This document shows positions 2,889 through 30,955 of a stretch of DNA of 39,170 nt, piece by piece. A program made the position numbers and the translations under genes. The notes beneath the pieces were generated by a model. That model was not told where the DNA came from, made no database searches, and was given only the letters and a program-made list of their open reading frames with translations. The stretch is from Rhodothermales bacterium. GTDB taxonomy: Bacteria > Bacteroidota > Rhodothermia > Rhodothermales > Bin80. The stretch covers positions 1-39,170 of the forward strand of contig JAAXGV010000207.1 in assembly GCA_012271185.1 (NCBI GenBank). The letters run 5' to 3'. Within the stretch, counting starts at the first letter, position 1. Every line of letters begins with the position of its first letter.

Positions 2889-3086
2889 GGGTCGTACGGT
2901 CTTAACTGGTGTGATTTCAGGCCATTTCTTGTGGACTCGTGTACGCTGGGAAAGGTCCAGCCGGCTGCGCAGTCTTCGAGCTCGCCGTGGGGCCACAACC
3001 ATGCTGCGGATGCCCTCACAGTGCCACTGTCATCACAGGCGCTTTCACCTGCCTCTGGCGCCGGAACCACGCGGGTGTGCAGCTCT

Positions 3087-8999: not shown

Positions 9000-11900
9000 C
9001 CGAGGCGCTCAAAGTAGTTCCATGCCACCTTGTAGTCTTCTTCGCGATCGCACCGGTCGAAGGGTGCATGGAGCTCAACGGTTCGCTCCCTGGGTCCGCC
9101 TGGCAGGGTATCGTCCATGAATGTGCAGGTCACAGTGCCGTGCTTCATATCCCGTACATCCTCCCAGCCCAGGGCGATATTGGTGCTTTCGCCTTTGATG
9201 CCGTAGCCTGTGTCGCCGCGCTTCTTTCTTCGAGGCAGGTAGCCCATCCCTTTCTTGCTTGAAAACACGCATCGCCCCCCCGCGTCGTACCAGGTATCAT
9301 GCTCGTACATGTACAGCACTGGAAACTGTATCCGGTATACGGCGCACAGCTCATCGAGTGTGAGCCCCAGCGCCTGTGCGCAGAGCACATCCAGTTCAAC
9401 CAGGGCCTGGCGGCGGGCGTAGTCGGTTCTGAGGGCGCTCTCACGCTGCCAGGGGACGTTGAACAGGCTGAAGTAGCCGTCGTGCAGACGGGGGTCTGAT
9501 TTGGTCCAAGCCGCTATGGAAGCGCTGGTAACGGATACGTTCCACAGGTCTCGGTAGTCTGCTGTCACGCAGACGAGCCCGAACACTCGGGCGGCAGCCG
9601 CAGCGCTGAACGGCATCAGCGGCAGAAGCGAGGTTCGCCCTGCGTGAAGATTATGACTCCCGGCTGTTTTGACATAGCCGTCCATGATGATCGTCAGCCA
9701 TCCCTGCAGTGCACGCAAGAGGTTCTGCACCTTCCGGAAAGCGATTGAAGTTACCGCATGTACATGAGCGGCTCCCGGAGGCATCACCGCTGCGATGAGC
9801 GTTCGCTCGTTGTCCAAGCTTAACAGTCTTCTACAGGCTATGCGGTAATAGCCGCTGTGTGGTTTTTCCCAAGGAGTCGAGGGGATCTGCCGGGCGTATT
9901 CCGATGGGTCGCAGGCGATCGTGTAGTTGGTGCGGGGGCGGTACGCATCGGGCAGACGCACAAGGTCCAGGCGGGTATAGTCCCCGTGTGATTTGCAGCC
10001 GCTGTTCGGGGTGCTGTAGAGCGGGTTACCCACATGAAAGTGGGGACCGGACAGGATCCATTCCTGCGCCGAGCCGGCAAATCGGGTGCTTCTCTGGATG
10101 ACGCCGGCCTTCTGTGCGTTTGTCTCATTCCACATTGCGCTGATGCTGAACTGTCCGCTCAGGCTGCGCAGCCGATCTGCTGTGAGCCGCCGCAAAACCG
10201 CATGGATGGGTGTGGAGTGAATCTCAGGCAGCTGCGCCTGCAGTGAGCGCGTGCCTGCCGGGTCGAACAGCCGGGCATACAGCGAGAGCTCTTCCGGTCC
10301 TGTCCGGATGATGCGTTCACGGTGCCCTTCCAGGACCCACTTGTTGTCCTTTGTCTTGATGCCCGGCACCGGCCCGTAGCCCGCATGACGAAAGGATGCG
10401 TCGATCGTGCCGGGATGCAGCAGATGTGACATGCAGGTGAAGGCAGGGTTCGCTTGGGGCTGCGCATACACGTTTATACTGAATCTGACTCCGTGGCCAA
10501 TCTCAGGAAAAAGGCGCTTTTCATTAGTAAACCGGAAGTGGCGGCGCAGCCGGGGATACAGCGCTTCTCTCAGCGGTCCGCCCTTGGCGTCATCATACAC
10601 GCCCGTGGGATGCAGTAGCCCAATGGCGCCTGTGGAGAGCGACAGGGCTGCGGCCAGAAAGGACTTGTACAGGTTGGCCTTCATGCCCTGCAACAGCGGA
10701 TAGTTGGCATTCTGAAAGGCGGCTTCCGCCTTTGCGGCGCCGAACGCTTTCAGGTATCTGCTGCGGTTGGTCGCCTGCTGAAGCCACGCTGCACGCAGCT
10801 TTGCCGTCTGACTTGCGCTGAACCGCTTGGTCGCGAAGCGTGGCTCCGTATCGGCCAGGATGTTCTGCTCAACGAAGGAGGCCTTCTTCCACGGCGGATT
10901 CCCTATCACGATATCAAACCCTCCCCGCACTGCGAACTGGTCGGCATACTCCAGCTGCCAGTGATGAAACCGGAATTGCTTGGACAGCTTCGCTACCAGG
11001 CCCAGCCGGGGACGCTGTTCCTTCAGGGTATCCAGGTCCACGTAACCGATTGCGTCGCGCTCCACAGGTATACCATCCACGACGCTGGTCTGCACTACCT
11101 CGTCCCGTCCGGCCAGTATCCGGCTGAGATCGCTCAGGTACTCATCGCGTGCAGGCAGCAGCTCAGTCTTTTCGATGGGCCAGTATCACAGTGCACACCA
11201 GTAGTCCATAACCAGCTTCAGCCGCTGGTAGGCGCTGGCATGGCCGCCCGGGCTCAGGACCTCGCGCAGATGCCGCTCCTTCATGCGGGTATCCGTGCGT
11301 CGCGTATATGCACGATCCTTGTCCGGATAGATGGCAAACGCGTCGGTGGTGCGATCGTCGAGACGTGTCAAGTCGCGCACATGCTGCGCCCACAGCCTGT
11401 CAATGATGCCCGAAAAGTGCTCCAGGAGCACGCATTCGCGTGCGCTGATCCGGGCAGTGAAGTGCTTCTTCCACCGGTCAGCCTGTTTGAGCTCCGCCGC
11501 GGCGATCTGCTTGACGACCTTGCCGCGGTAGTCCATCATACCGGGGTCGCCTACCAGAAAATGGTATATCGTCCCGTCTTTGGCGAACTCCACGTCTTCC
11601 GGAGGCTGTTTCCACCATCTGCCCTGCATCAGCTGATCCTCGGAATACACGCGGCGCCACGCTCCCACGAGTGAGTTGCCGCACTTGAGCTGGTTGCCGA
11701 ACCAGGGCACAAAGCCGTCCGGAACCAGCGTGTTAAGCCACAGAGATACCCCGCCCAGCTCCACCGCGATAGGGTTCAGGTCAACGCCATACGCGTTGTT
11801 GTCCGCCAGATACATCTTCACGCGCTGCAGCTCTTGGGCATACCGCTCAGCGGACAGGGATTCGCCCCGCTCGCGGGTCTTGCGCCGCAGATATGCCTCC

Positions 11901-13564
11901 GCGAGCTGCGAAACCGCTTCATTCAGGAATGCGGCTGAGCCCATCGCAGGCTCGCAGACGGTGAGGTCCAGAATCTCGTCTGCGGACAGGCCGTGCAGCA
12001 CCTCCTCCAGGGCATGCTGTACCACACACTGGGTGAGAGACTCCGGTGTATAGTAAGAGGCGGACTCCTCGCGTGCGCGACTCGTCAGGCGGTATATGAA
12101 CGAGCCCTTCCTGTGGCAGACCAGCCGGCCGCCGCTGTCATACACGCGCTCCTCCTCATCGTAATGCGCTTCCAGCGCCGCCGCGTTCACGAAGTATGTG
12201 GGCGAGAGCATATCCGGGTACGTGCCGCGCTTTTTGACCTCGTACAGGTCTTCTTGTGCAATGAAGCCCTGATAGCTCAGCAGGGCCTCGTAGACCTCGC
12301 CCAGGTGGTTGACCCCGAGCTGCGCATACGAGATGCGGCCCTTCCGGCCCGGATAGCCCTCATGGCCAAGGGACATCATCCGGATGATCCGCTGCCATAC
12401 CCGGTTGCGGATGCGGATCGAGTTCAAGAGCGGTGTCTCCTTCGGGTCAAACAGGCTGCATTGCAGGGGTGCTATGCTGAATGTGTCCTCGCTTCCCTCC
12501 ATGGTACGCTGCCGGCCCTCCTCCTGCCTGCCGGCAAACACCAGCTTGAAAAGCCTCAGCAGCGATTCGTGCAGGAAGTACCCTTCCGAGCTGTCACCCT
12601 CCTCCAGGGATACCATCTCCAGGTCACGCAGCAGCTCCAGGCTGTATCCCTCGCGGTACAGTATGGCGTTCATGGGGAGGTACCCGAGCTCCTGGCGCGA
12701 CTCCACCGTGAAAAGGAACAGCATCCGGTACATGTAGCGCAGGCACTCAAACGACAGTGCCTTCTCATCCACGCTGGTGGCTTGGCGTCGCGCCGTGCGA
12801 CGATAATGCAGGAACTCATTGCCCAGGAGCTCCACGGCTTCCCGGAGCGCATACTTGAGGCTGCCGGACACGCCTTGCGCATGCGCTTTGGACCGCTGAT
12901 CGATACGGTCAAGCTCAGAGGTCAGGCCACTGGCCGGGCAGAGGCTGTCCCGGCTCAGCAGCATCGCCACAAGCTGGAAGGTGCTGATGGGTGTGCGACG
13001 GTTGAAGAGCTCCGCCCAGTCAACACGGAGCGCCCGGTGCCCGGACCACTTGGTCCGGTCCAGCAGCACAAAGACGTGCAGCGAAACGATAAGCAGCCAG
13101 CGCGGCGGCGCGTCACAGAAGAAGGCCTCCCCAACCAGCCGCTCCAGCGTGGCGCCCTCTGCTGCAAGCTGCATGATGTCGTCCCCGGTATGGGCGCCGT
13201 CCAGTGCCTCCACTATCCACAGGTAGGGTCGACTTTCCCGCTCTACCTGCCCCAGCCGTGTGAGTGTGCCGCTGTTCAGGTGCGCGGTCGAGATCTCCGG
13301 ATTGTAGCCCAGAGCACCCAGAAGAGGCCACACATGGCGCCGCTGGATCTGCAGCCGCTCCGGTGCGCGGGCCCGCCGGAAATCCTCGCGGTGCTCCAGG
13401 AACTGGCGAGCCATACGCTGGAGCATGACCCAGCGGGGGGTCTCCCCATTCACCGGGCGCCTGGCTTTGACCCACTGCTTCAGGTCCTTCTCCAGGATCA
13501 CCTGCAGATAGTGGTCCGAGTAGAACTCGTTCTCATTCCTGATGCCGGTCAGGTCCAAGGCCAT
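8996..13564 (-). pseudogene. Large N6-adenine DNA methyltransferase (Eco57I/DrmMI-like, ~1520 codons) interrupted by one in-frame TGA at 11186-11188
   Basis: ORF 11186..13564 has YYTP and motif I EPAMGSAAF; ORF 8996..11095 has motif IV GNPPW and a likely target-recognition region. Both are in the same frame, and the gap reads MDYWCAL*YWPIEKTELLPARDEYL...VQTSVVDG. Confidence 0.88.
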
Positions 13565-13568
13565 GCCG

Positions 13569-16394
13569 CTACCCTCCAGCCAGCACGGCGACTACCTGCA
13601 TGTAGGGGGTTTCCTCTATGTGCATGGTGTCATGGATCCATTGCCGGTATGTGTTAAACTTCTCTTCTACTCTGCGCAGCGCATGCACCCTCCGGCCTGT
13701 TGTGAGCTGATCCTCGGCCATGAAGCGCTCTCCGACATGCGTCTCGTGGCGAGCCTTAAGGTGCTTGAGGTCCGCGAGGTGCGACTGTAGCTTCGGATCG
13801 AGCTCGGATACAAACCTGTCGCGCTCTGCGCGTACAAATTCCGCAGCCTGTTCGACAGCGTCCGGGAGCATGCGGCGTGCAACCTCAATGGCCTGCTGTT
13901 CACAGCCTGCGTTTGCCAGCCTGCTCGACTGCAGGGCCGCAAATTCCGGTGATCCTTGAAGGCGCTCAACGTGGAAGACCCCGCCTGTGGCCCGGACCAC
14001 GCACCACTCCTGGAACACGGTGCGCCCCTTGCGATTCGGATAGGAGATCGAGATGATGTAAGAGATGGCCTGTGCATTGGCACTCGGCAGCGCGATGACC
14101 GGCGCTTCCAGGCGCCTGAACGATGCGCGCACCTTGTCGGTCGCCCAGTCCATCAGCGGGTGCAGCGGCCACAGATAGTGCATTTGCGGCCACGTTTCTT
14201 CGGTTGCACGGGCGGCCCTGATGCCTGCCATCATGACCTTGGGCTGCGCAGTTAAATCAAAAATGTTGTGCTTCGGCCGGGCTTCGCGCGGCAGCGTATC
14301 TGTCACGTTCTGCAGGGCGTTGGAAGCCGTGAGCTGAATGCGCTGTTCGTGGTCCCACATACGCAGCTCAAAGTCCAGCGAGTCGCCTTTGATGCGTGTT
14401 AGGGCGGACTTCAGGTAGTCATAATCCGATGCATACAGCGACGGCATGGAGCGTGTGCTGTGGACTGAAGGCTGGGTGCCTGTCCCGAGCAGCGCAGCAA
14501 CCGGATCGAAAGGGTCCTCTTCCTGCTCGCAGGTGAACAGCCCTCCGGTGGAAGTAGTGCCCTCAATGACATCGCGAACCCTCAGCTCCTCCTTTTGCGC
14601 ATCGTACAGCCCCATCAGGATGGCGGGGTCTCCGATGTTCTTGTGTGCCTGCTGCTCCTTCTCGACGAGAATCTTGAGGATGCGCTGGTCATCCCTGAAC
14701 TTCTTTGCCGAGCAGCTGGTCACCAGGTACACAATCTGCGGCTTGCGCTCCTGCCCATACCGGTCTATGCGCCCATTGCGCTGCTGCAGCGTCATGAGCG
14801 ACCACGGGATATCAAAGTGGATAAGCCTGCGACAGTGGTAGTGCAGGTTCAGTCCTTCTGAGCCCACGTCCGATGAGAGCAGCAGCCGCACCGGCGACCG
14901 GTCGCTGCCGAATGCTTCCACGATCTCCTGCTGATCCACATCCTTCATCGTCCCTTTGAGCACGCGGACAGTGTTAGGCCCAAGTTGCAGGTCAGCCTTC
15001 AGGCGCTCATGCAAGAAGTCAAGCGTCGCGATACGTTCCGTGAAGATGACGACCCGATCATGCGGATCCCGAATGTCCCAGCTCCAGTGCCTGAACACCT
15101 TCAGGAGGCGCTGATACTTGGAAAAGGTGTCGGGCCGGACGTGCCCGAGCCGGTCGGCGATGCGCTGGAGAAGGCCCGTGGCTTTGGGCCCTTTGCCTTG
15201 CTTCCGGAGCTTTGTGATGCGGGCCTGTATGGTTTCCAGGCAGGCCGCCGGTGACGACAGCACGGCTTTTTCCAGCACGGTTCGCAGCAGCCATCCGTTG
15301 CCCACCCTGGCAGAGAGCTGCTCGTTTGTGGTGTCTGCCAGCGCCGAAAAGACGGCTTCTTCGGCCTTCGAAGCCTCAGTCGGCAGGATATGGGTGTCGC
15401 GCTCCTTAAAGGCCGCCGCGACTTCGTGCCGGATATCTTTCTTGAAGCGGCGCACAAACAGGTTCTTACCTTTCAGGTCTTCTCTGGTGTACTGATCCGG
15501 GTTGGCTATGGCTGTCGGGTCCAGCATGCTCATGAGGTTGGCGAAGCTGCGTGCCCGTCCGTCGTGCGGTGTCGCACTCAGCATGATGAGTGCATCGGAG
15601 CGGTCTGCCAGGATCTCCGCCAGCTGATTTCGCAGCGACCGGGTGCCCCGGTTGGCCACGTTCTGGGCTTCATCGATCACGATGATATCCCAGTAGGCCT
15701 GCTCAACGAAGACGCGGTAGTCTGCTGCTAACTTGAGCGTGTCGATCGAGATGATCGACTTATCAAAGTGATTAAAGGGGTTGTGTCCTACCGGAATCTG
15801 GTTACGCACGCGCTGTATACCTGCAGAGTCCAGCCGTACCAGCGGGATCGCAAAGCGGGTCCACAGCTCTTTCTGAAACTGCATGAGCATGCTCTTGAGC
15901 GTCACCACGAGGATGCGCCGTCCGCGTCCGCGCCGCATCAGCTCCGCAATGAGGATGCCCGCTTCCAGCGTCTTGCCCAGTCCGGTGCCGTCTGCAATCA
16001 GTATCCTGGGCCGGGGCTGCTGCAGCGCCAGCACCGCAGGCAGACGCTGATAGGGAACGTTATCCATAGCGCCGCGATGTCCCAGATACAGGTGTTCGTC
16101 GGTAGGGGGCGTGGCGCGCAGCTGACTTTCTATGTGAAGCTTGGCTGCCAGATAGCCTGGCGATTCATCGTGAACCAGCCTCACCTTCTTCGGATCGACT
16201 TCGGCGAACTTCTCTAGCTCTGTCAGGAACTTCCAGTCGCAATCCCGGACCAGCGGGCTTACGCCGGTGACTGACAGTATGTAATGGCCATCAAAGGTGC
16301 GATCGGCACGGCGCACGATCCACTCTTCGCCTCGGATTTCCAGCCGTGCCCCCGGTGCAGGCGGTCGCTCTATTGCAGAACTCATACGTAGCAT
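13569..16394 (-). CDS. SNF2-family helicase (DrmD-like), first gene of the defence operon
   Basis: ADGTGLGKT, DEAQ, SATPH, SEGLNL and QRNGRIDRYGQ motifs. It stops 4 nt before the methyltransferase ATG, with GGAGG in its last codons. The start may be 16385. Confidence 0.9.
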   Translation of the reverse strand: MLRMSSAIERPPAPGARLEIRGEEWIVRRADRTFDGHYILSVTGVSPLVRDCDWKFLTELEKFAEVDPKKVRLVHDESPGYLAAKLHIESQLRATPPTDEHLYLGHRGAMDNVPYQRLPAVLALQQPRPRILIADGTGLGKTLEAGILIAELMRRGRGRRILVVTLKSMLMQFQKELWTRFAIPLVRLDSAGIQRVRNQIPVGHNPFNHFDKSIISIDTLKLAADYRVFVEQAYWDIIVIDEAQNVANRGTRSLRNQLAEILADRSDALIMLSATPHDGRARSFANLMSMLDPTAIANPDQYTREDLKGKNLFVRRFKKDIRHEVAAAFKERDTHILPTEASKAEEAVFSALADTTNEQLSARVGNGWLLRTVLEKAVLSSPAACLETIQARITKLRKQGKGPKATGLLQRIADRLGHVRPDTFSKYQRLLKVFRHWSWDIRDPHDRVVIFTERIATLDFLHERLKADLQLGPNTVRVLKGTMKDVDQQEIVEAFGSDRSPVRLLLSSDVGSEGLNLHYHCRRLIHFDIPWSLMTLQQRNGRIDRYGQERKPQIVYLVTSCSAKKFRDDQRILKILVEKEQQAHKNIGDPAILMGLYDAQKEELRVRDVIEGTTSTGGLFTCEQEEDPFDPVAALLGTGTQPSVHSTRSMPSLYASDYDYLKSALTRIKGDSLDFELRMWDHEQRIQLTASNALQNVTDTLPREARPKHNIFDLTAQPKVMMAGIRAARATEETWPQMHYLWPLHPLMDWATDKVRASFRRLEAPVIALPSANAQAISYIISISYPNRKGRTVFQEWCVVRATGGVFHVERLQGSPEFAALQSSRLANAGCEQQAIEVARRMLPDAVEQAAEFVRAERDRFVSELDPKLQSHLADLKHLKARHETHVGERFMAEDQLTTGRRVHALRRVEEKFNTYRQWIHDTMHIEETPYMQVVAVLAGG

Positions 16395-16458
16395 TGTTCA
16401 CATTCATAATACTACTCTCCGTCTCAACTGTATTTCTGCCTCGCCGCTGATATTTACC

Positions 16459-16503
16459 CGTCAGGCAGCGGGCGGGTTCAGCTTGATCGTCCGCTGCCTG
16501 ACG
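16459..16503. promoter_or_regulatory. Inverted repeat upstream of the defence operon
   Basis: CGTCAGGCAGCGG (16459-16471) and CCGCTGCCTGACG (16491-16503) are a perfect 13-bp inverted repeat, extendable by G-T pairs. There is no U-tract on either side; function is inferred. Confidence 0.45.
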
Positions 16504-16855
16504 ACCGGTTCACCTGCGTACAGCCGCCGGCCGCACGGCAAGCCTTCTCGGGTCCACACTTGGGAGATCAAGCTCCCTGATCATTTCCTCTTGCCGAGCA
16601 CGTTGTTCTCCGGCAGCGCGTGCGACCAGGCTTACCTCTTAGCCGATCCCGGCAAGTCTGTGGTACTGTTACACAGCAACCTTCGCGTCTCTCGAAGCCA
16701 TGCCCGCGATTGCGGAGCGGAAGCATTTTTCGCGCCAGTCTGCCGCTGCTCCCACCTGAAGGTGCCTGAGTCCAAGTGAGGCACCAGTCGCAAAACAAGA
16801 CGATGGCCTTGCCTGCCCTGTCAAGCAAGGCATAGCCTGCGTTTCCGGTGATCGG

Positions 16856-17062
16856 TCAAGCTGGCGTATCCGGTTTCTGTGGAAGAAACCAGGGGGTCAT
16901 GCGTCCTTCTATCCGCGCAAGGCGTTCAGACACGTCCGCGATGCGTCTGTCAAGGCGTTCTGATACGTCAGTGATGCGCCTGTTCAGAGTGGTATACAGT
17001 CCTCCAATGGCCAACAAAATGGTAACCGTAGCGCCTACGGCAGAAAGTATCGTGGTGATCAT
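16856..17062 (-). CDS. Small membrane-anchored coiled-coil protein, copy A (68 aa)
   Basis: MITTILSAVGATVTILLAIGGLY hydrophobic helix, then RRITDVSERLD/RRIADVSERLA 11-residue repeats and an RIEGRMTPWFLPQKPDTPA tail. Frame is conserved in all three copies. Confidence 0.75.
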   Translation of the reverse strand: MITTILSAVGATVTILLAIGGLYTTLNRRITDVSERLDRRIADVSERLARIEGRMTPWFLPQKPDTPA

Positions 17063-17443
17063 GGGGCTGCATAGTGAGTGTGGTGATAGAACGCCGTCAT
17101 ACGAGATTCGTTCAGCAGGGGGCACGCTGTTCGGCATAGCCATGCGCTATGGCGAATCCCTGGCTACGTGGTGCGGGTAGCTCACAGGCCAGCCGATACT
17201 GTTCAAGAACGCGTTGACAATGCTGGCGCGTCTGATTCTCTGTGGTCACATGCGGCGGCGCTTGGTCGACATGGGCTTGGTCCAAGTGCCCACGCTGCAG
17301 TTCCCTATCTTGTGAGCGTACTTTTTGGGCTGGTCTGGTGGCAGGTTGTCATCGATTTTCGTGCCTGCCTTCTTTGCTTCGATGATGACGATGGCCTCGT
17401 CTGCCTTGTCAAGCAGGGCGTAGTTTGCGTTCCCGGTGATCGG

Positions 17444-17671
17444 TCAAGCTGGCGTATCCGGTTTCTGTGGAAGAAACCAGGGGGTCATGCGTCCTTCTAT
17501 CCGCGCAAGGCGTTCTAACACGTCTGATATGCGTCTGTCAAGGCGTTCTGATACGTCCGAGATGCGCCTGTCAAGACCCTCGATGCGCCTGTTAAGCGTG
17601 GCATATAGTCTTCCAATGGCCAACAAAATGGTAACCGTAGCGCCTACGGCAGAAAGTATCGTGGTAATCAT
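17444..17671 (-). CDS. Small membrane-anchored coiled-coil protein, copy B (75 aa)
   Basis: Paralogue of copy A with an extra in-frame heptad (RRIEGLD). Confidence 0.75.
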   Translation of the reverse strand: MITTILSAVGATVTILLAIGRLYATLNRRIEGLDRRISDVSERLDRRISDVLERLARIEGRMTPWFLPQKPDTPA

Positions 17672-17871
17672 GGGGCTGCATAGTGAGTGTGATGATAGAA
17701 CGCCGTCATACGAGATTCGTTCAGCAGGGGCACGCTGTTCGGCATAGCCATGCGCTATGGCGAATCCCTGGCTACGCCACAGGCCAGCCGATACTGTTCA
17801 AGAATGCATTGACAAGGCAGGCACGCGCCTGGCTCTCTGTGGTCACATACGACAGCGCTTGGTCGGCATGG

Positions 17872-18568
17872 GCTTGGTCCAAGTGCCCACGTTGCAGTTC
17901 CCTATCTTGTGAACGTACTTTTTGAGCTGGTCTGGTGGCAAGTTGCCATCGACCTTCGTGTCTGTTTTTTTCACCGTGACGATGACCTCGTCTGCCTTGT
18001 CAAGCAGGGCGTAGTTTGCGTTCCCGGTGATCGGTCAAGCTGGCGTATCCGGCTTCTGTGGTGGAAACCAGGGGGTCATGCGCCCTTCTATCCGCGCAAG
18101 GCGTTCAGACACGTCTGAGATGCGTCTGTTAAGGTGTTCTGACACGTCCGAGATGCGCCTGTCAAGGCCCTCGATGCGCCTGTTCAGCGTGGCATACAGT
18201 CTTCCAATGGCCAACAAAATGGTAACCGTAGCACCTACGGCAGAAAGTATCGTAGTGATCATAGGGCTGCGTAGTGCGTGTGATGATAGAACGCCGTCAT
18301 ACGAGATTCGTTCAGCAGGAGGTACGTTGTCCGGCGTAGCCATGCGCTATGGTGAATCCCTGGCCACTCGGTGCGGGTAGCTCACGGGCCAGCCGATACT
18401 GCTCAAGAACGCGTTGACAAGGGCTGGCGCGCGTCAGGCTCTCTGTGGTCACATACGGCAGCGCTTGGTCTGGGAAGCTTCCAGCTCTCGCCGCAGGTTC
18501 TCCTTTATCATTACTGATTTCCGAATTTCTGGCACCTTCAAAGGACGGGCAGCGTGGTCATCATGCTG
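17872..18568 (-). pseudogene. Decayed 5' part of an HsdR_N-like nuclease paralogue, interrupted by the small-ORF cassette (shorter copies in the other two units)
   Basis: Translates LKVPEIRKSVMIKENLRRE versus LKIPDFQKSTMEKENLRRE in the intact gene, then shows indels (1-bp loss near 18480, a short deletion near 18470) and the cassette insertion. Confidence 0.8.
18035..18262 (-). CDS. Small membrane-anchored coiled-coil protein, copy C (75 aa)
   Basis: Paralogue of copies A and B; the ATG at 18262 is at the same relative position. Confidence 0.75.
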   Translation of the reverse strand: MITTILSAVGATVTILLAIGRLYATLNRRIEGLDRRISDVSEHLNRRISDVSERLARIEGRMTPWFPPQKPDTPA

Positions 18569-18749
18569 TCAGGTTCGCTCAAGAGACAACAGCGCCAGGA
18601 TTGAATCATTTCACAGCAGAATGCTGCTCCGACCCGCTGGCTGCCAGCAGCGGCACAGGAAATACTGAATCAATCCACGGGAGTCTTGGCGTGGCCACCT
18701 CTGTGATATGTGCAGTCGCTCTTGAGGTGGCAACCGAGTGCTGTCACAA

Positions 18750-19922
18750 TCAGTCTTTTTTCCGTATCCAACTGGGCAGCCATACCTCAAAGTCTGTGCC
18801 GGGCTGTGGCACCAGGCCTTCTTGGTTGCTAGCTAAGCTTGCAAGCCACCTCTCTTTGGCAGCATTACCTTTATTTGTATCAACGTATGCTTTTCCGTCA
18901 AAAATGGCTCGGTACCCCTTAAACTTGCCGTCCGGAGGCTGCGGGCCGAGCGATATGCCAGGACCTCCTTTGAACGAATCAAGGCCGCCACCCCATTCAA
19001 TCAGCCACTCAGCCACCCTTGCCTGAACGTCGGCGCCGCTGCTTTCCACCTTCCATTCGTCCCAGTCACCGGAGGCCTTATTCCGGGTTCTCCAAGCACG
19101 CTTTTGCCCCTTCTGAGTCAGTATGGTACCATCGGCCTGCCTAAAGGTCGTGGGAGGATTCCCAATTGGTCCGGGCTTATTAGTGCCGTTTGGCGGAGGA
19201 ATTATGATAACCGGTCCATTTCCATTTGGTTCAGTCGCCGAATGTAGCCTGATCCAGGCGCGCTTCACAATGATCAGATCGCGCGCACTGGCTTTTGTTT
19301 TTGACAGACCGAGCTCCTTCCACACAAGCTGTGCAAGTTTGTCTGACGGCTCCTTCCTTGCAGATTCCCACCAGTGCTGCATTTTTGAGGTGACTTCATG
19401 CGTCCTCGCATCGTACAGCAGTCGCGAAGGGTCCGGATCGGAGAACTGGCTCCTGACAGAAGCCAGCCAGCCCAGCACAGAAGGGCGGAGCCAGCCCTTG
19501 CTCTGCACATCATATGTGACAAACGGCGCTTCACCCAGCGTGTTTGTAGGGTCCAGGCAAAACCAATACCACTCCAGACCATTGGTCCAGGCGCCCACGT
19601 TGCAGGTCCCTATCTTGTGAACGTACTTTTTGAGCTGATCTGGTGGCAGGCTGTCATCGATCTTCGCGCCCGCCTTCTTTGCCTCGATAATGACGATGAC
19701 CCTGCCTGCCTTGTCAAGCAGGGCGTAGTCTGCGTTTCCGGAAATCGGCACGGGAAACTCCTGGGCTACGCGGTGCGGGTGGGCCACAGGCCAGCCGACC
19801 CTGTTCAAGAACGGATCAATGAGGCTGGTACGCGTCAGACTTTCTGTAGTCACATACCGCAGCACCTGGCCGACATGGGCTGGGAAGCTTTCCAGCTCTC
19901 GCCGCAGGTTCTCCTTTTCCAT
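18750..19922 (-). CDS. Stand-alone type I restriction HsdR_N-like PD-(D/E)xK nuclease with unrecognised C-terminal domain (~390 aa)
   Basis: TESLTRTSLIDPFLNRVGW, QEF...ADYAL...IIIEAKK, QLKKY and TNGLEWYWF are typical HsdR_N/YeeA-type motifs, followed by a Pro/Gly/Asn linker. The start may lie about 10 codons further upstream. Confidence 0.8.
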   Translation of the reverse strand: MEKENLRRELESFPAHVGQVLRYVTTESLTRTSLIDPFLNRVGWPVAHPHRVAQEFPVPISGNADYALLDKAGRVIVIIEAKKAGAKIDDSLPPDQLKKYVHKIGTCNVGAWTNGLEWYWFCLDPTNTLGEAPFVTYDVQSKGWLRPSVLGWLASVRSQFSDPDPSRLLYDARTHEVTSKMQHWWESARKEPSDKLAQLVWKELGLSKTKASARDLIIVKRAWIRLHSATEPNGNGPVIIIPPPNGTNKPGPIGNPPTTFRQADGTILTQKGQKRAWRTRNKASGDWDEWKVESSGADVQARVAEWLIEWGGGLDSFKGGPGISLGPQPPDGKFKGYRAIFDGKAYVDTNKGNAAKERWLASLASNQEGLVPQPGTDFEVWLPSWIRKKD

Positions 19923-20202
19923 TGTTGATTTCTGAAAATCCGGAATCTTCAAAGGACGGGCAGCGTGGTCGTCATGCTGCCAGAAGGCAGCAGCACGAAG
20001 GTTGGGCCGTCCCGTAGCGGAATATACTGCGCACAGCATAATTCTATCCCGAGCCGCGGGCTGGAACTGCAGGAGGCGCTGACGGAAACCAGCCTCGCAT
20101 GGCGAGAGCACAACTGCCAGCCCCTCAGTCTGCCGCGACGGAGGGGGTTGGTATACTGCGCCTGCCAGCAGTACCTTTCATGCCGGAATTACCGAGCACA
20201 CG

Positions 20203-21606
20203 ATGCCAGCGATCGGATCAGAGGAAACACCCCTGCGCGTAGCCATCATCGGGGCAGGACCCGCAGGGTTCTACGCGGCAGGACATCTCTTCAAGCAGCG
20301 ATCATGCTGCGTGACAGTGGACATGTACGACAAGCTGCCCACACCGTTCGGGCTCGTCCGCTGCGGTGTGGCACCGGACCACCAGAAGATCAAAAACGTG
20401 ACCCGCGTCTATACCAGGACCGCAGCCCATACAGGGTTCAGGTTCTTCGGTAACGTGGAATACGGCCGGCACCTCTCGCTGGATCAGCTGAAAGCACACT
20501 ATCACCAGATCTACTTCTCCACCGGCGCACAGGTGGACCGGCGCCTGAACATTCCGGGCGAAGACCTGGGACGCAGCTACTCCGCGACAGACTTCGTAGC
20601 ATGGTACAACGGCCACCCCGAATACCGCCACCTGGAGTTTGACCTCTCCCGCCCGTGTGTCGCCGTCGTCGGCGTAGGTAACGTGGCCGTAGATGTTTGT
20701 CGGGTCCTCTGCCGCACCATAGAGGAGCTGGCGGCCACAGACATTGCCGACTACGCCCTGGAAGCGCTCCGCGAAAGCAGGGTACGCGAGGTGCACATGC
20801 TGGGCCGCCGCGGACCAGCACAGGCGGCGTTCACCAATCCCGAGGCCAAGGAGCTGGGCGTGCTCCCGGGTGCCGATATCCATGTGCCACCCGGTGAAGC
20901 GGCACTGGATGCATGCACGACAGCACACCTTGGAGAAAAACCCGACCGCCTTACGCAGAAAAAGATCGGGATGATCCGGGACTTTTCCATGCGGCAGCGT
21001 ACGGGCAAGCCAAGGCTGCTGACGATACGCTTTCTTGTGTCACCCGTAAAGCTCCACGACGACGGTACAGGCCACGTGGGAGGGGTGCAGCTTGTCAGGA
21101 ATGAGCTGTACGCCGTCGGCGACGGCCGCCTCAGGCCCCGCGCAACGGACACGCTGGAAGAGCTGCCGGCGGAGGTGGTCTTTCGATCCGTAGGGTATCG
21201 AGGCGTACCCCTCTCAGGTCTACCCTTTAATGACAGCTGGGGCGTGGTGCACAGCAGCAAGGGGCGCGTGATGGATCCGGAGATCCAGGCTTCCGTGCCG
21301 GGCGTCTACGTGGGTGGCTGGATCAAGCGCGGCCCCACGGGGGTCATCGGAACCAACAAGGCGGATGCCCTGGAGAGCGTCAAAGCCATGATGGAGGACG
21401 TACAGAACGGGTGCTGCCTGAATCCTGCAGCGCCCAGTGTAGAAGCCGCAGAAAGGATGGTCCGCGCATGTCAGCCTGACTACGTGTCGTGGGAGGACTG
21501 GGAGCGCATAGATGCGCTGGAGACCGCCCGCGGCAAGCCGGCAGGGCGGCCCAGAGTCAAGTTTGTTGACACAAGCGAGGTCCTGGCGGCACTGGGGCGT
21601 GCCTAA
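20203..21606 (+). CDS. fprA: Ferredoxin--NADP+ reductase (FprA/adrenodoxin reductase type)
   Basis: GAGPAGFY, PFGLVRCGVAPDH, GVGNVAVD, RRGPAQAAFT, GWIKRGPTGVIGTN and RPRVK motifs. Confidence 0.9.
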   Translation: MPAIGSEETPLRVAIIGAGPAGFYAAGHLFKQRSCCVTVDMYDKLPTPFGLVRCGVAPDHQKIKNVTRVYTRTAAHTGFRFFGNVEYGRHLSLDQLKAHYHQIYFSTGAQVDRRLNIPGEDLGRSYSATDFVAWYNGHPEYRHLEFDLSRPCVAVVGVGNVAVDVCRVLCRTIEELAATDIADYALEALRESRVREVHMLGRRGPAQAAFTNPEAKELGVLPGADIHVPPGEAALDACTTAHLGEKPDRLTQKKIGMIRDFSMRQRTGKPRLLTIRFLVSPVKLHDDGTGHVGGVQLVRNELYAVGDGRLRPRATDTLEELPAEVVFRSVGYRGVPLSGLPFNDSWGVVHSSKGRVMDPEIQASVPGVYVGGWIKRGPTGVIGTNKADALESVKAMMEDVQNGCCLNPAAPSVEAAERMVRACQPDYVSWEDWERIDALETARGKPAGRPRVKFVDTSEVLAALGRA

Positions 21607-22598
21607 AGCGAGCCGCGCTCACGGTCCATGCTGTTGTTTAGCCGTGCCAGCCGTAGCATCAGCACCTCAAGCTCGTCATAGTAGGCGTCCACATTCATGG
21701 TGGACTTGCGCGCCTTCAGCGCGGCAATCTCATGTTCTATCGCCTCCTTGCTCTGCTGCATGGCCGTGAGCATCTTCGTGGCGCCTTCAAGCGAGGGTCG
21801 CCGCAGAAAGGTCACAGCGGCCAGGTGGCCGTCCTGACTGTCGCGCAGCTGCTCCAGGCGCGTGCCTTCACCGTCGCCGGTGTCGTCAATAAGAGGGTGC
21901 TCAGTCGCCAGGAGGCCCTCGCCTTCAAAATGTCCGGCCGTCTGTATCGCCGCATAGTTGAACACCTCCAAGACGGAAAGGCTGCCGTCACGGTCCAGAT
22001 CAGCCGAAGGGCTGGACAGGGCCTCCACAAAGAAGCGCGGGAAGATCGTCTGGTTGCGCTGCGTGCCGCTGCGGGTGGCCGTTATCACAACACGCTCCGG
22101 TGCGCTTAGCGCTGCAACAAAAGGGGCACTGGCGCTGGCGGTGTTGACGAAAACGATGCGTGCCGCCGGTAACGCATTGATCAGCAGGGCATAGTCAGCG
22201 CTGGAAAGGTCCCTCCGGGCGATGTTCAGCATAGCATCGCGGCCGTCGAAGCTGCCATGCCCGAACAGCACGACATAGACCTGATCCTGAGGGGTGACCA
22301 GGCCTGCCAGCGCAGTGAAGGCGGCCCTGATGTTCTCCGCATTGGCGATGGCATCCACGACAGGCTCCCCGGCCGTAGCCGGCTCAGACAGAACCGTCAC
22401 ATTGCTTTCCTCGAAGCCCAGCGGCCCTACAAGTGCCGCATGTGCATCAAACAGGTACTGCCGGAGCGTGCCGGTATACTCCGGCGATCCTCCAAGCCCG
22501 CCAATGAGCACGGCGTACTGGGTCTGTGCCAGGCATGGCCAAGCCACCAGACACGCGTAGAGCGCTACGGTAAGCCTTGCTGTCGCCGATAGAGCCAT
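21603..22598 (-). CDS. Secreted caspase/C13-like fold protein, probably non-catalytic
   Basis: Signal peptide, LIGGLGG, LFGHGS, VVITAT, an EF-hand-like DLDRDGSLSVLE loop and a C-terminal coiled coil. Start chosen at ATG 22598. Confidence 0.6.
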   Translation of the reverse strand: MALSATARLTVALYACLVAWPCLAQTQYAVLIGGLGGSPEYTGTLRQYLFDAHAALVGPLGFEESNVTVLSEPATAGEPVVDAIANAENIRAAFTALAGLVTPQDQVYVVLFGHGSFDGRDAMLNIARRDLSSADYALLINALPAARIVFVNTASASAPFVAALSAPERVVITATRSGTQRNQTIFPRFFVEALSSPSADLDRDGSLSVLEVFNYAAIQTAGHFEGEGLLATEHPLIDDTGDGEGTRLEQLRDSQDGHLAAVTFLRRPSLEGATKMLTAMQQSKEAIEHEIAALKARKSTMNVDAYYDELEVLMLRLARLNNSMDRERGSL

Positions 22599-24847
22599 TC
22601 CGCACAGAGCAGTAGCAGGGCCAGAAGAAAAAGTGCCGGCATATCCCACAGGTATTCAGCGTGATACACCGACGTGCTGGTGCGGCGCTCACGCAGGTTC
22701 ACTGGCACAGCGCCGGCCTCCGCGGGCGTATAGTAATAGCCAGCCACCTCAGCCAGCTGCTCCAGCACAGGACGCTTGAGGGTGGCATCATAGTACTCCA
22801 CCTGCTTCGTGCGGGCCAGGACGCTGTGCTGCTCCCGGCCAATGAGAAGGCCTCCATGCCGGGCCGTCACATCCAGCTCGTACAGTCCCTCGGCAGCAGG
22901 CGCGATGCGTGTGGTGTAGGTGCCGGAGCGGGTCAGCTCCTCATCAAAGCGAAGCGGCACGATACTGCCGTCAGGTGCCGTCAGCACGCCCTCCACCTCC
23001 GCATGCTCAAGGGCGCTGTACACGTCATCGTACACGTTCACACTAAGCTGCGTCGCGTCACCGGTGCTCAGATAGTTCTGGCCCGTCTGCAGGTCCACCT
23101 GTTCAGGTGCGGACGCTGCCAGCCATCGCGCCAGCTGCTGCCAGAAGCGCTCATGCCGATAGTCGGTCGCGTCCAGCAGCATCTGCCAGCGCCAGGTGCT
23201 GCTGGTCGCCAGCGCCGCCGTGCGGCCCTTGCCGTAGCGCTGCACGATAAGGAGCGGCTCCGCTGCGCCATACCGGTCAGCAGGCTTCTGGGCAAGGACC
23301 TGCGCACCCGCCTTGGGGGTACCAAGGTAATTGATGCTGGTCAGAAGCGGCATGCTGCTCCACAAGCCGCGGTTGGTGACAAGCTCTGAGGACAACTTGA
23401 GTATGGGGCTTTCCAGGCCGGCAGGCGTGGGCTCAAACGCAAACCCCGCCGACTCCTCGCCGCCTTCCAGGGGATGGCTGAAACGCACAGGCACCACCTG
23501 CGCGCGCGTGGCGTCCAGATACACGGGGAGCACGTCCGCAACAGGGCCGGTCACATAGACGCCCTCGGCAAAAGTCTTGCGCCCGCCCATCATGAGGAAG
23601 CCGCCGCCACGGACACGGACAAAGGATTCGATGAGGCGCAGCTGCCCGGGCGAGAACGCGGTAGCCTCCACATCTCCCAGGATCAGGGCATCGAAAGCAT
23701 ACAGGTCTCCGGCCACGCTCGGGAAGCCCCCCGCCAGCTCCGCAGGGCTGCGGATGCCCTGACGATAGAGCTTGCCGGTCCCCGTGCGCGTGATCGACGT
23801 GAACTCCACAACCTGATCGTCCTCAAGTGCGCGCTTGATGAACTTGAAATCCTGCCGGAGATGCCCCTCGAAATACAGCACGCGGAGCGTGTCCGTGCGG
23901 GCATCCACCAGCATCGATAGCGCATTGTTGGTGGTGTTGAGCTCGCCCGGTGCTGTGTCGACAGCTATGCGGTAGGCATGCGCGCCATCAAGCGGCGGCT
24001 CGAAAAAGAAGCTCAGATGGTCAATCCGGCCATCACCTTTCAGTGTGCGTGCTTCACTGAAAATAACCGCATCCCCGGCGTAGATGCTGAAGGTCACTGG
24101 GTCAGGCTCACGACCCCAGCTGCGAACCTTCACATCAATCTCAGCCCCGGCATGCTTGCCCACGCCCTTGCTCACCAGGACATCCACCAGCTCCCGCTCG
24201 GCCGCGAACGACTCCTGGCCCATGCCGATGATGTGCAGGCCGATGCCGGCGGAGCGCAGCGCTTCTGCCTTGTCCAGCGGATGCTGTGCGGTGTTGTCCG
24301 CGCCATCGGTCACCAGCACGACACCGGTCAGCGGAAGGCCCCGGAAGTCTTTGATCACCCGGTCAAGCGCGGCAGAGATGTTGGTGCCCACGCCGTGCGC
24401 GCCGCCGTCCAGTGAGTCGGCCCGCACGGTACGCTCATCAAACGTGTACAAGCGCACCTGAAAGTCCTCCTCAGCAGACTGGATAATGCCGCCATCGTCA
24501 TGGTAAAGCAGGTCATACGCCTGCGCTATGCGAGACTGGCCGTTATCTCCGTCTGTGACCGACATGCTGCCGGACACGTCGACCAGGACAGCGACAAAGT
24601 TTTCGTCAGGGATGACGCTGGGAGTGATCAGGGCTGGCTCGAAGAGCGGGGTGACAAGCAGCAGGGCGGCTGCCAGACGCAGGCTGAGCGATACCAGCCG
24701 TACGCGCCGCGGTGCGCTGGCCCGGAGCAGAAAAACACACACAAGGACGGCAAGCCCAGCCAGCACCAGAAGGGCAGGGAAGGGCTGTATGCTGACAACG
24801 CCCTCGGAAAACTGAAGTGGACTGAACTTGAGCAGTCGCTCTGCCAT
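22565..24847 (-). CDS. Membrane protein with vWA domain and class I glutamine amidotransferase-like domain
   Basis: N-terminal TM helices, MIDAS DVSGS, VTDG, GGGFLMMGG, YGKGR...TWRW and a C-terminal TM helix ending EWLYRR. Confidence 0.8.
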   Translation of the reverse strand: MAERLLKFSPLQFSEGVVSIQPFPALLVLAGLAVLVCVFLLRASAPRRVRLVSLSLRLAAALLLVTPLFEPALITPSVIPDENFVAVLVDVSGSMSVTDGDNGQSRIAQAYDLLYHDDGGIIQSAEEDFQVRLYTFDERTVRADSLDGGAHGVGTNISAALDRVIKDFRGLPLTGVVLVTDGADNTAQHPLDKAEALRSAGIGLHIIGMGQESFAAERELVDVLVSKGVGKHAGAEIDVKVRSWGREPDPVTFSIYAGDAVIFSEARTLKGDGRIDHLSFFFEPPLDGAHAYRIAVDTAPGELNTTNNALSMLVDARTDTLRVLYFEGHLRQDFKFIKRALEDDQVVEFTSITRTGTGKLYRQGIRSPAELAGGFPSVAGDLYAFDALILGDVEATAFSPGQLRLIESFVRVRGGGFLMMGGRKTFAEGVYVTGPVADVLPVYLDATRAQVVPVRFSHPLEGGEESAGFAFEPTPAGLESPILKLSSELVTNRGLWSSMPLLTSINYLGTPKAGAQVLAQKPADRYGAAEPLLIVQRYGKGRTAALATSSTWRWQMLLDATDYRHERFWQQLARWLAASAPEQVDLQTGQNYLSTGDATQLSVNVYDDVYSALEHAEVEGVLTAPDGSIVPLRFDEELTRSGTYTTRIAPAAEGLYELDVTARHGGLLIGREQHSVLARTKQVEYYDATLKRPVLEQLAEVAGYYYTPAEAGAVPVNLRERRTSTSVYHAEYLWDMPALFLLALLLLCAEWLYRRQQGLP

Positions 24848-24855
24848 GCCTGCCT

Positions 24856-27800
24856 CTACTGCCGCGACAGCGACTCATAGTACTTCTCCACCATACCGGA
24901 ATATTCCGGTGGCACCTCCCCGCGGCGGCTGCCGTACAGCCGGGTCTCCATCTGCACCAGATCAAGCGCACGCGCGATCTTTTCCTCCAGCTGATTCAGT
25001 GCGTCGTAGACACGCCGTTCGAAGAAAGCTTTGGCGGATTCCTCATCCAGCAGGACACCCGTATGGTCAGCGCGCGTCAGCGCATTCTGGACCCCTGCCA
25101 GCGCCTGTTGCGTGGCGTTGTCACCGCCCTGCTGCATAAGGTCCTGCAGCCGTGCCGTGGCCCTCGACAGCTGGCTCCGCATCCGTGCCTCAAGGCTGCG
25201 GCTGTCCGCTTCAGGGTCGCTTTCGCGCAGCCGTGCCGCATCGGATTCCAGGCGCCGCAGCTGCTCCTGCAGGTCCTGCACCTCGCGCAGCGTGGCGGCG
25301 AGTGACTCCTCCTCCGTAACCGGCAGCGACTGTTCCAGGGCGCGGCGGCTTTCGTCCAGGTTGGCAAGGTCGCGCAGAATCTCTTCTTCTAGGCGCTGGG
25401 CGCTCTCCAGCCAGCCATTGCGGAGCGCCCGGTAGGAGCTTGCCATGTCGCCCGCAAGGTCATCGCGCCGCACCTGCTGCTGCAGGTTGCGCAGGCTGGC
25501 GGTCATCTCAGGGTCCTGGCTCTGTGCTTCCATCCGTGCAGCCTCTTCCATCGCCTGATGCAGCGCATCGACAAGCGCCAGGCGCTCATCGTCCAGCGGG
25601 CGCATCTCCGCCTCAGTGGGACGCGTGGATCGGGAGGCCAGCTCCTCAATGTCCTGGGCCAGGCGCTGCTCCCGGTCCGACAGGTCCTGCAGATCGTCCG
25701 TCAACGCTTGGAGCTGTGCACGTCTTGATCCGCGGGTGGCCATCTGCAGGTCGGGCTGCAGCTGCTGCAGGTCCCTCAGCGCCTGCTGCTGCCGCTGAAC
25801 GGCCTCGTCCAGATTGCCCCGGCGGAGCGCTCGGTCAGCTTCGCGCATATTGCGCAGTGCGCTGGCCATGCGTCCCTCGGTCTGCTGCATGTCGCGGGCC
25901 ACCTGCTCCAGCTGCTGGCGGACCTCCTCCTGATCCCTGCGCAGCTTGTCGACAAAGCGTTTGCGGTCCTCGCCCTGCAGGGTTTCGGGGCGCTGAAGGT
26001 TGGCCAGATCCTGCTGCCGCCGTGCCAGGTCCTTTACCCGGCGCAGAGCATCATCGAACTGCTGCGTTTCTTGCGCCCGCTGCTGCTGTACCTCGTACTT
26101 GTCCTTGGAGATATCCAGCTCAAGGTCCATGAGCTCAGACATACGCTCCTCCGTGGCCGACATGCCGCCGCCCTGGCCACGCTGCTGTTGCTGCGCAACC
26201 TGGTTCTCCCTGTTTTGGGCATCGGCACGAAGCAGCGCGGTCAGTGCCTTGCGCTGCGTCGGCAGCGCATCCCGCAGCGCATCCCGCTCCAGCTGCTCCA
26301 CGGCGTGGCCCATGCTAAGGACCGCATCCTCGAGGTAGCGGACAGTCTGCTGCTGCATCTCGTTGCCGCGCAGCTCCAGCGAGAAGGCAGTGGACTGTAT
26401 ACGCTCTTCAATGCTGCGCTGGAGGCTGGACTGGGCCCCTATCAAGGCCCGGAGCGCACCCGCATAATCTTCATGCGTGTCACGCTCGCGGACCAGGCGC
26501 CAGGTGGCGGCGATAAGCTCCTGCTGGCTGACCACCAGACCGCTCTGCTGCCGGCCGCTCTGCCCGCCCGCCGCTGCGGAAACCTGCGTATAGGTCTGAT
26601 CAAAGGGGATGATCTCAATGAAGTACATGTCCGTCACAGCATGCTGCAAGGCGTCCTGCGCCTCGAGATAGTACGTGATCACATCACCTGGCTGCAGGCT
26701 GTAGTCCTCCAGGAACAGTAGGTGCTCGCCTGCGCTTTGGCGTGCGTCTGGCGTGTCCAGCAGGCTGATGGTCTGCGCCTCCCCGCCCCCGACAAAGAAG
26801 ACCAGACCAAAAGCCTTGACGCCATAGTCATCGTCGACGTCGGCGGCGATCAGTACCTCTTCGACAGCGTTGGCGCGCACATCCCGCCCCGGATCCTGTA
26901 CAGTGATGTGCGGCTCGCTGTCGGGCACTGGAATGATAGCATACTGAGCCGGAAACAGGTTGCGCTTGCCGTTGGCGTCGGTCAGCCTGAGCGTGTACAG
27001 GTCCTCTTCCTCCAGCGTGATCTGCCCTGAAAACAGGCCGCCGTCCCGTGCGGCAAGAGGAAGGACCACGCCGCTTTCGAGGAGCATCTCGGCGGTCTTG
27101 GGCATGCCTGTGGTATGCACCGCCAGTGTCACGGTGGACCCGGCAAGACCGTGTATGTCGCCCGTGTCCTCTTCCGTGCGGGGGGGCAGCGGGATATGGT
27201 CCGGGTACTCATAGGTCAGGTCAATCTGATTCACGGCCGGAAACTCATACACGGAGATCACGAAAGGCTCCGAGCGGCGACGCCCAGCCTCCACATAGTA
27301 TTCTATCGGGTCCTGTATGCTGGTGAATTCGGCCATGAATGCTGTGCCTTCCAGGCCTGCCTTCATAACCTGCCGGACCCATGTGCCGCCGGACTCCCTG
27401 AAGACGATGAGAATATCGCTGCCGGGGTCGTTGCGCAGCTCGGCTACAACAGTCTGGGATTCGCCTTTTTCCACCTCCACGTTGCCTGGCAACACCGTCA
27501 TGAAGGGTCGTACCGCTGCGGCGCTGTTTGATGCGACGAGGCGCACCTTGTCCAAGTTCAGCCCGCCCACAAGCAACAGCGCAGCTGCGGCAACAGCGCA
27601 GGCGCCGGCGATGGCACGGGCTCGCAGCTTGCGCACCAGCGTGCGCGGAACGATGCCGCGTGCCATGCGGCCCGCATCCTCCAGGAGGCCGGACAGGACC
27701 GCGTCAGCACCCTCAACCCTGTTGGCACGCGCCTCTATGGCACTGTTCAGGCGGTCTTCAAGGCCTGGCGCCTGCTCCTCAATGAACAGGGCGATCCGGC

Positions 27801-30050: not shown

Positions 30051-30053
30051 GAG

Positions 30054-30953: not shown

Positions 30954-30955
30954 CG

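Follow-up and report, generated by a model that had tools for sequence, protein, structure and literature searches.

A small predicted membrane-anchored coiled-coil gene in a tandem array of dead nuclease fragments from a Rhodothermales genome

PspB is a 74-amino-acid (aa) bitopic protein, anchored at its N terminus and carrying a leucine zipper on the cytoplasmic side, and the combination of a transmembrane (TM) helix, a coiled coil, and a PD-(D/E)xK nuclease is a known architecture (RmuC, PF02646, and DUF3782-type nucleases). In E. coli, the ldr/rdl loci comprise several direct repeats of ~0.5–0.6 kb with small one-TM open reading frames (ORFs); they are multi-copy, and the similarity among them extends past the ORF (Kawano 2002, cited in PMC2887945). 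Translation of hok, in hok/mok/sok, needs the overlapping mok frame (PMC4147584). ARMADA II is a relative of DISARM with four essential genes, and the available portion of its description gives no small membrane protein (PMC13463889). Here, we compare with these systems a tandem array of small genes at 16799–18572 of contig JAAXGV010000207.1 from a Rhodothermales bacterium (assembly GCA_012271185.1). The window is the whole stretch analyzed (39,170 nt). Its genome is referred to as G000 and the contigs of that genome by C-numbers; G001 is a genome of the same genus, other G-numbers are genomes of the phylum, and L-numbers are loci that were examined.

We consider the array best explained (probability of about 0.6) as a three-unit amplification of the 5' fragment of a dead nuclease gene interrupted by a cassette with a small gene; the family of that gene would be undescribed, and independent of the defense operon nearby. 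There are three tandem units of ~590 bp each on the minus strand (repeat search and alignment), as had been stated in an earlier reading of the window, made by a model without database searches (hereafter, the sequence-only reading). A 300-nt block occurs three times, at 16798, 17386, and 17977 (588 and 591 nt apart), and a 248-nt block also occurs three times (spacing 609 and 591 nt). Further repeat families connect the units with 19582–19983, which is the 5' part of the intact nuclease gene, and Tandem Repeats Finder reports a 33-nt repeat present twice within every unit. Based on alignment and tblastn, a unit is composed of nuclease aa 15–57, a segment without counterpart in the intact gene (the cassette), and nuclease aa 59–113; over this last part, units 2 and 3 share 78% and 71% identity, respectively, with the intact protein. 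The unit junctions fall between 17873 and 17872 and between 17276 and 17275, and unit 1 ends at ~16799, truncated within the IVIIEAK motif. The features are as follows:

18750–19922, minus strand: intact nuclease gene, 390 aa from the ATG at 19922; the open frame extends to a GTG at 20111
18480–18572, minus strand: head of a decayed second nuclease copy, with the 5' untranslated region and first codons (repeat family D6, 18479–18572 versus 19890–19983, 87% identity)
17873–18479, minus strand: unit 3 (nuclease aa ~12–57 at 18352–18479; cassette at 18035–18351; nuclease aa 59–113 at 17876–18034)
17276–17872, minus strand: unit 2 (nuclease aa 15–57 at 17760–17872, with a 13-bp loss; cassette at 17444–17759; nuclease aa 59–113 at 17279–17443)
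16799–17275, minus strand: unit 1 (nuclease aa ~15–57 at 17152–17275, with a 2-bp loss; cassette at 16856–17151; nuclease aa 59–79 at 16799–16855)
18035–18262, minus strand: small ORF copy 3, 75 aa, with a TM helix and a hendecad coiled coil, RLARIEGRMTPW
17444–17671, minus strand: small ORF copy 2, 75 aa, modeled by AlphaFold2 as a single helix (residues 2–61)
16856–17062, minus strand: small ORF copy 1, 68 aa, without one heptad, EGLDRRI
18259–18300, minus strand: 13-codon leader ORF (MTAFYHHTHYAAL), read from the sequence; the same ORF lies at 17668–17709 and 17059–17100

By their coordinates, the small ORFs (68–75 aa) are co-oriented with the nuclease gene upstream (18750–19922) and with the operon downstream, which begins with a helicase gene (13569–16394), all being on the minus strand, again as first described. 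The junction between unit 2 and unit 1 is crossed, with no differences, by Logan contigs that come from two studies (X1 record 2, which corresponds to 17139–17462, X1 being possibly the source sample, and X5 record 10, which corresponds to 17154–17341). The array is spanned whole by none of the Logan contigs, and for the copy number this assembly is the sole basis. Two RNA runs carrying the same species label contributed 0 reads and so bear on expression in neither direction. The variants that Logan contigs show within unit 2, one of them an additional G at 17726, all match the states of sister units; they were thus taken as cross-talk or conversion and were not used.

The intact nuclease carries an N-terminal HSDR_N_2 PD-(D/E)xK domain (motif ADYALLD...IIEAKK). 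It matches Pfam HSDR_N_2 (E = 9e-6; 26.2 bits versus a cut-off of 25) and PHROG 4225, an endonuclease (E = 5e-18); a PDB sequence search with the protein returned no matches. Of 301 genomes surveyed in the phylum, 35 (G000 among them) hold a relative, and most of these relatives are open frames of ~350–385 aa. Given these lengths, and because the duplicated 5' region (family D6) points the same way, the start is most likely the ATG at 19922 rather than the GTG at 20111. In all three units the nuclease-derived frames carry stops and frameshifts, and none of them retains an intact HSDR_N frame. The catalytic motif is also degraded: N replaces the first D in unit 2, unit 3 is without the E-A of ExK, and unit 1 is truncated before ExK. 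The indels in the nuclease parts comprise the 13-bp loss in unit 2, events of 2 bp and 1 bp, and the loss of 6 bp from unit 3. The sequence-only reading had given the 13-bp loss correctly; the 1-bp loss that it placed near 18480 is one of two losses, as ~10 nt are gone as well.

Within the same repeat unit, these dead pieces provide a built-in neutral reference against which a gene of 68–75 codons can be judged. Frame-breaking indels are confined to the flanks; the small ORFs differ by substitutions and by one in-frame indel of 21 bp only (a point on which the sequence-only reading was right), which is exactly one heptad. Pairwise p-distances are 0.063–0.077 for the ORF and 0.108–0.159 and 0.098–0.212 for the two nuclease parts (nucA and nucB, respectively). 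Among the small ORFs, the ratio of nonsynonymous to synonymous divergence (dN/dS; Nei-Gojobori, NG86) is 0.23, 0.25, and 0.12, and the ORF dS (0.13–0.23) roughly matches the divergence seen in the dead flanks (0.10–0.21). The codons common to the three copies show 13 synonymous versus 7 nonsynonymous changes, where 26% synonymous is expected without selection (binomial p = 3e-4). That the small genes are held by purifying selection while the nuclease pieces decay is supported by these comparisons, and diverged paralogs and metagenomic homologs retain the architecture. Selection for the small proteins had been proposed at the outset, together with the comparison of dN/dS against flank divergence; run as proposed, it gives values (0.12–0.25) that lie far from 1.

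If the duplication were simply young and neutral, the ORFs could be open merely because little time has passed, with no functional protein involved. Only 20 substitutions separate the three copies, and exchange between copies can homogenize them, both of which would suit such a history. However, flanks in the same units already carry stops and frameshifts and the ORF has none, the dN/dS values and the binomial result speak for constraint, and paralogs only 50% identical, as well as metagenomic homologs, retain the start, TM helix, motif, and stop. We regard a neutral origin as very improbable. Unit 2 is a mosaic, with a leader that resembles unit 1 at eight of nine informative sites, ORF codons ~20–38 that resemble unit 3, and a 3' third of the ORF that mostly resembles unit 1. 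This shows that the units exchange sequence, which is also the most straightforward route to building and maintaining an array of this kind.

The cassette (~315 nt) lies between nuclease codons 57 and 59 and replaces codon 58. It consists of ~36 nt of unknown origin, a conserved leader of ~55 nt, and the small ORF, and terminates exactly at the ORF stop. Read in the nuclease frame, a unit runs from V-A-R-D-S-P (P57) through a TAG, 103 codons, and a TGA to P59 (P-I-T-G-N), with collinearity and reading frame both kept. Since one length in three would be divisible by three by chance, nothing is drawn from the in-frame insertion.

It might be asked whether the units are instead the remnant of a membrane-anchored, stalked nuclease, whose TM helix and coiled coil were once fused to the PD-(D/E)xK core and whose TGA is a nonsense mutation that was copied. 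The small ORF and the downstream core are indeed in the same frame with a single TGA between them, and RmuC and DUF3782-type nucleases likewise have a coiled-coil element directly preceding the core. However, here there are two separate frames and not one joined polypeptide. The stop of a paralog on C195 aligns with the TGA column of the units, and the homologs P0002, P0005, and P0033 terminate there as well, which indicates that the TGA is the natural stop of the family. No fused homolog was found among 1143 candidates of 133–2000 aa (weak evidence), and the core is without the first helix of the fold, which sits upstream of the cassette. We give very little credence to a former fusion. RmuC was not found in G000 (95.6% complete), and there was no Pfam match to DUF3782. 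Recoding of TGA was also considered and rejected, as nine of 18 long ORFs terminate with TGA.

All three copies of the small protein (68, 75, and 75 aa) have a hydrophobic N-terminal helix, 11-residue repeats, a conserved end, and a proline-rich tail. The best 19-residue hydropathy window, MITTILSAVGATVTILLAI, comprises residues 1–19; no K or R precedes it, and the 15 residues that follow contain three. Because there is no charge before the hydrophobic helix and there are arginines after it, this is probably a single-pass inner-membrane protein with its N terminus outside and its C terminus inside. About 55 of 75 residues form a charged rod with an 11-residue repeat unit (RRISDVSERLD), and the rod terminates in a RLARIEGRM-PW motif, followed by the short tail. 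With a 21-row alignment, the single helix predicted by AlphaFold2 has a mean predicted local distance difference test score (pLDDT) of 81.5; a homodimer prediction (score 0.01, without controls) weighs neither for nor against self-association. PspB is similar in size and architecture (an N-terminal membrane helix, then a cytoplasmic coiled coil), but there is no Pfam PspB match at E-values up to 10, the surroundings are not those of a psp operon, and the protein here departs from PspB in its repeat type (hendecads) and its C-terminal motif.

Database searches attach no name to the small ORFs. In Pfam (matches listed up to E = 10) there is only sub-threshold coiled-coil noise (best E = 0.0033; 17.9 bits versus a cut-off of 38), PADLOC and NCBIfam return no match at all, PHROGs returns none that is significant, and only “hypothetical protein” clusters were returned from the ESM Atlas. 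Thus, no significant family, including any type I toxin family, was found in Pfam, PHROGs, PADLOC, or NCBIfam. A left-over phage lysis gene, holin- or spanin-like, would also combine a TM helix with a coiled coil. Sub-threshold PHROG matches to holins and Rz-like spanins exist (best E = 0.008, over 25 residues), and two viral contigs have small TM + ERLARIEG ORFs. Against this, no PHROG match is significant, no phage genes were recognized around the array, and no lysis family was seen among the viral neighbors (none of 13 ORFs matched on one contig, and two of 11, a primase/polymerase and a terminase, on the other). We find a lysis function scarcely credible.

The leader deserves separate consideration. 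The TGA of its ORF (MTAFYHHTHYAAP) overlaps the main ATG as ATGA, and all of this lies within the leader. The leader ORF is His/Tyr-rich, and three of the four differences between units are synonymous in its frame (alignment). The leader (54 nt) is 81% identical in the C195 paralog, where the leader ORF is fused in frame. These features recall a type I toxin–antitoxin (TA)-like long-direct-repeat array, with a membrane-damaging peptide gated by a leader ORF and a putative antisense RNA, as in hok/mok/sok or ldr/rdl. By analogy, such an interpretation is possible but unlikely. Tandem direct repeats of ~0.6 kb, a small one-TM ORF in each, and similarity past the ORF correspond to the criteria by which Fozo et al. 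2010 searched (PMC2887945); the duplication is in tandem in one intergenic region, and leader and flanks are also similar. The 81% identity of the leader with C195 is on par with the best coding blocks, and the middle of the paralog is at 43%. In addition, the 13-codon ORF ends over the main start, and the family is multi-copy, two copies flanking a HipA-like gene in G056. As in hok/mok/sok, a short upstream frame overlaps the start of a small membrane-protein gene (PMC4147584), but only the ATGA overlap is seen here, from sequence alone, and there is no homology.

Several observations argue against a type I system. The proteins are 68–75 aa long, and paralogs reach 157–197 aa, versus less than 60–70 aa with a small polar C-terminal region for the toxins (PMC2887945). 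With the TM helix at residues 1–19, the array copies are at or above that limit, and their C-terminal part is a charged rod of 55 residues with no toxin-family match. Ldr, at 35 aa, is much shorter and is without the long charged coiled coil (paralogs here have up to 197 aa). Moreover, the flanks here derive from a nuclease gene, the sequence resembles no toxin family, and sequence searches gave no antisense RNA signal. Within 16400–20250 there is no sigma-70-like promoter on either strand, and the sole terminator-like site is on the plus strand at 17336–17354, against a chance expectation of 3.5. Rfam gave no match anywhere in the window, and the RNA fold z-scores (+0.87 and −0.70 for the two strands) are not unusual. 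The consensus motif TAnnTTTG has four matches in the window versus 5.4 expected, none of them in the array. The analogy to ldr/rdl drawn in the sequence-only reading keeps some weight: the tandem repeats, the one-TM ORF, and the conserved leader with its ORF agree with it; the protein's length and its charged rod are unusual for such toxins, and sequence searches gave no sign of an antisense RNA.

A gene of 68–75 codons is likely to be overlooked, or left nameless, by annotation pipelines. A word-indexed search of 5.8 billion proteins recovered only the protein itself and P0002 (68 aa, 63% identical). When 1.84 billion representatives were searched with a profile, 84 matches reached E ≤ 1e-3 and two reached E ≤ 1e-10, many of the matches being via repeats only; P0005, P0033, and others have the same anchor, rod, and ARIEGR end, and none is named. 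The C195 paralog is 50% identical and has no nuclease flanks. By segment, its identity to unit 2 is 81% (leader), 85% (TM helix), 43% (middle), 93% (ERLARIEGRM block), and 38% (tail). The three array copies, C195, P0002, P0005, P0033, and others in alignments A2 and A4 all have an N-terminal TM helix, a rod of variable repeats, and (E/Q)R(L/V/M)ARIEGR(L/M)-P-(W/Y) near the C terminus. Across 21 rows, E59 is invariant, and A56, R57, and G60 are conserved in at least 90%. From such alignments, we think it probable that these proteins form a family without annotation and with a patchy distribution, made up of small coiled-coil proteins with a membrane anchor, whose rod length varies by gain and loss of repeats and whose genes are often part of the flexible genome.

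G000 holds at least five further relatives outside the array, on C195, C57, C35, C69, and C176 (the last at a contig end). The members on C57, C35, and C69 have 157–197 aa and varying numbers of GRIDQVN-type repeats, and a survey of the phylum gave profile matches at E ≤ 1e-3 in 15 of 401 genomes (G000 included). Translation of the 17 matches outside G000 showed seven with the same architecture (two in G056, four in G016, and one in G015, with varying repeat numbers), three other TM + coiled-coil proteins, and seven that are clearly different (e.g., flagellar hook-associated, kinase, and OmpA-like proteins). Tandem pairs of such genes are present in three Latescibacterota genomes, and small TM + ERLARIEG ORFs in two of six viral-contig loci. 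Overall, the family would consist of scattered, nameless membrane-anchored rods, multi-copy in a repeat-rich genome and occurring as tandem pairs in another phylum. The additional loci are as follows:

C57:2663–3136 (L043), C35 ~8090–8577, and C69:885–1478: longer members, from translated relatives in G000
L019 5.6–6.2 kb, L020 5786–6198, and L021 5786–6198: Latescibacterota pairs of TM + coiled-coil + ARIEGRLDPY genes

As side observations, the C57, C35, and C69 members constitute a second subfamily (GRIDQVN / GRIDRVASDLG repeats) that sits in segments of ~1.2 kb that are ~80% alike, and G000 is rich in dispersed repeats of 100–400 nt, many of them at contig ends. The two genes of the L020 pair overlap start to stop as ATGA, and the L020 and L021 pairs both adjoin a type I HsdM-like methylase.

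Under our preferred explanation, a second copy of the neighboring HSDR_N-type nuclease gene would have been interrupted between codons 57 and 59 by the ~315-nt cassette, prior to amplification. Unequal exchange between the nuclease-derived flanks would then have multiplied the unit, and the units would have kept recombining. Ordinary insertion and unequal crossing-over would account for the array itself. The nuclease pieces would decay and purifying selection would retain the small gene, in whose product the hydrophobic helix is predicted to run unbroken into a charged rod on the cytoplasmic side, built of 11-residue repeats. The protein may self-associate via this rod and act as a small membrane-tethered scaffold or adaptor that belongs to the accessory gene pool and works apart from the ARMADA-like operon, with expression possibly governed by the conserved leader and its ORF.

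A number of points weigh against this explanation. The cassette spans from ~90 nt upstream of the gene to exactly its stop, and the route of insertion is unexplained. The region around the array (16400–20250) has neither a sigma-70-like promoter on either strand, as noted above, nor a minus-strand terminator-like site. The dN/dS values derive from 20 changes only, and pairs of copies are not independent, as the copies exchange sequence. Self-association of the rod is suggested by the helix and the repeats only. Finally, about eight of 15 family loci are near mobile, TA, or restriction–modification (RM) genes. There is no system in common among them, and the tally was made without a base-rate control, so no enrichment is claimed. 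Even so, with half of the loci in such places, a link to that pool, including a selfish or toxin-like role, is conceivable. We hold it doubtful, although worth stating, that the cassette is a self-contained, copy-prone mini-gene of a class not yet described, which inserted into and killed a nuclease gene of the defense island and was then amplified, encoding either a new leader-ORF-gated membrane toxin or a variable-length tether that partners PD-(D/E)xK nucleases. If true, this would add a new small-protein player to mobile and defense islands.

The array, the intact nuclease, and the operon downstream belong to a genomic island, because window positions 1–20201 are absent at the syntenic place in G001, with synteny beginning exactly at 20202, and because the left end of the window (48–758) encodes a TrbD/VirB3-like protein. 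The left flank in G001 maps to C57:8103–16268 of G000. Outside the array, the operon comprises the following:

774–16394, minus strand: ARMADA/DISARM-like operon, four-gene layout
13569–16394, minus strand: SNF2 helicase, the first operon gene
8996–13564, minus strand: adenine methylase, with an in-frame TGA at 11186–11188 (…DYWCAL*YWPIEK…)
3087–8999, minus strand: DExH helicase with MZB/DUF1998, 1970 aa
774–2758, minus strand: UvrD-like (UvrD/GajB-like) helicase, in two overlapping frames, 1796–2758 and 774–1967

The order of genes matches armABCD of ARMADA II (SNF2-type, adenine methylase, DExH + DUF1998, UvrD-like) (PMC13463889). Differences from ARMADA II/class 1 DISARM are the in-frame TGA in the methylase, the UvrD-like gene in two frames, and NCBIfam scores that fall far short of the DrmD equivalog cut-off (331 versus 610 bits). 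Separately, the halves of the split methylase match a single 1584-position type IIG profile end to end, and the split of the UvrD-like gene is a frameshift or an assembly error.

The sequence-only reading had offered, as one of two options, that the small genes are a diversified accessory module of the defense island; for a dedicated module of this operon we see no support. As an accessory part of an ARMADA/DISARM-like system, the small protein would be a membrane effector, sensor, or anchor that partners the operon or the intact nuclease. The array is co-oriented with the operon and 400 bp upstream of its first gene, with no minus-strand terminator-like site between. Elsewhere, the family members on C57 and at L076 (G016) adjoin an AAA_15/AAA_21 ATPase, and those at L020 and L021 a type I methylase. 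Nevertheless, the genes sit inside a pseudogene with no conserved operon slot, the other family loci examined in G000 and its relatives are without an operon of this kind, no defense system is common to any two loci, and there is no PADLOC match. The members on C195, C35, and C69, which have no recognized defense neighbor, and two of the four G016 copies have housekeeping or unknown neighbors, contexts elsewhere are unrelated, and ARMADA II is given as four genes with no small membrane protein in the accessible part of its description (PMC13463889). We consider an accessory role improbable, and a defense role of the array is not supported.

Considering the family loci individually, the C57 member adjoins a split AAA_15 ATPase and the C176 member adjoins an IS1595 transposase. 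In L072 (G056; 5527–8400), two near-identical members with differing repeat numbers flank the HipA-like kinase gene (6787–8004) and a 110-aa ORF. One G016 copy is near an integrase, a transposase, and an AAA_15 gene, and another is near a group II intron reverse transcriptase; the G015 member is near transposases, and two Latescibacterota loci are near a type I methylase. Housekeeping or unknown neighbors are seen for C195, C35, C69, two G016 copies, and L017–L019. At L076 (G016; 1142–11451), the member is located between a Bat/DUF58 operon and a group of genes that includes an integrase, a DDE transposase, and the AAA_15 ATPase; this Bat/DUF58 operon is of the same type as that at 22565–31984 of the window, and the island there is at a comparable chromosomal neighborhood.

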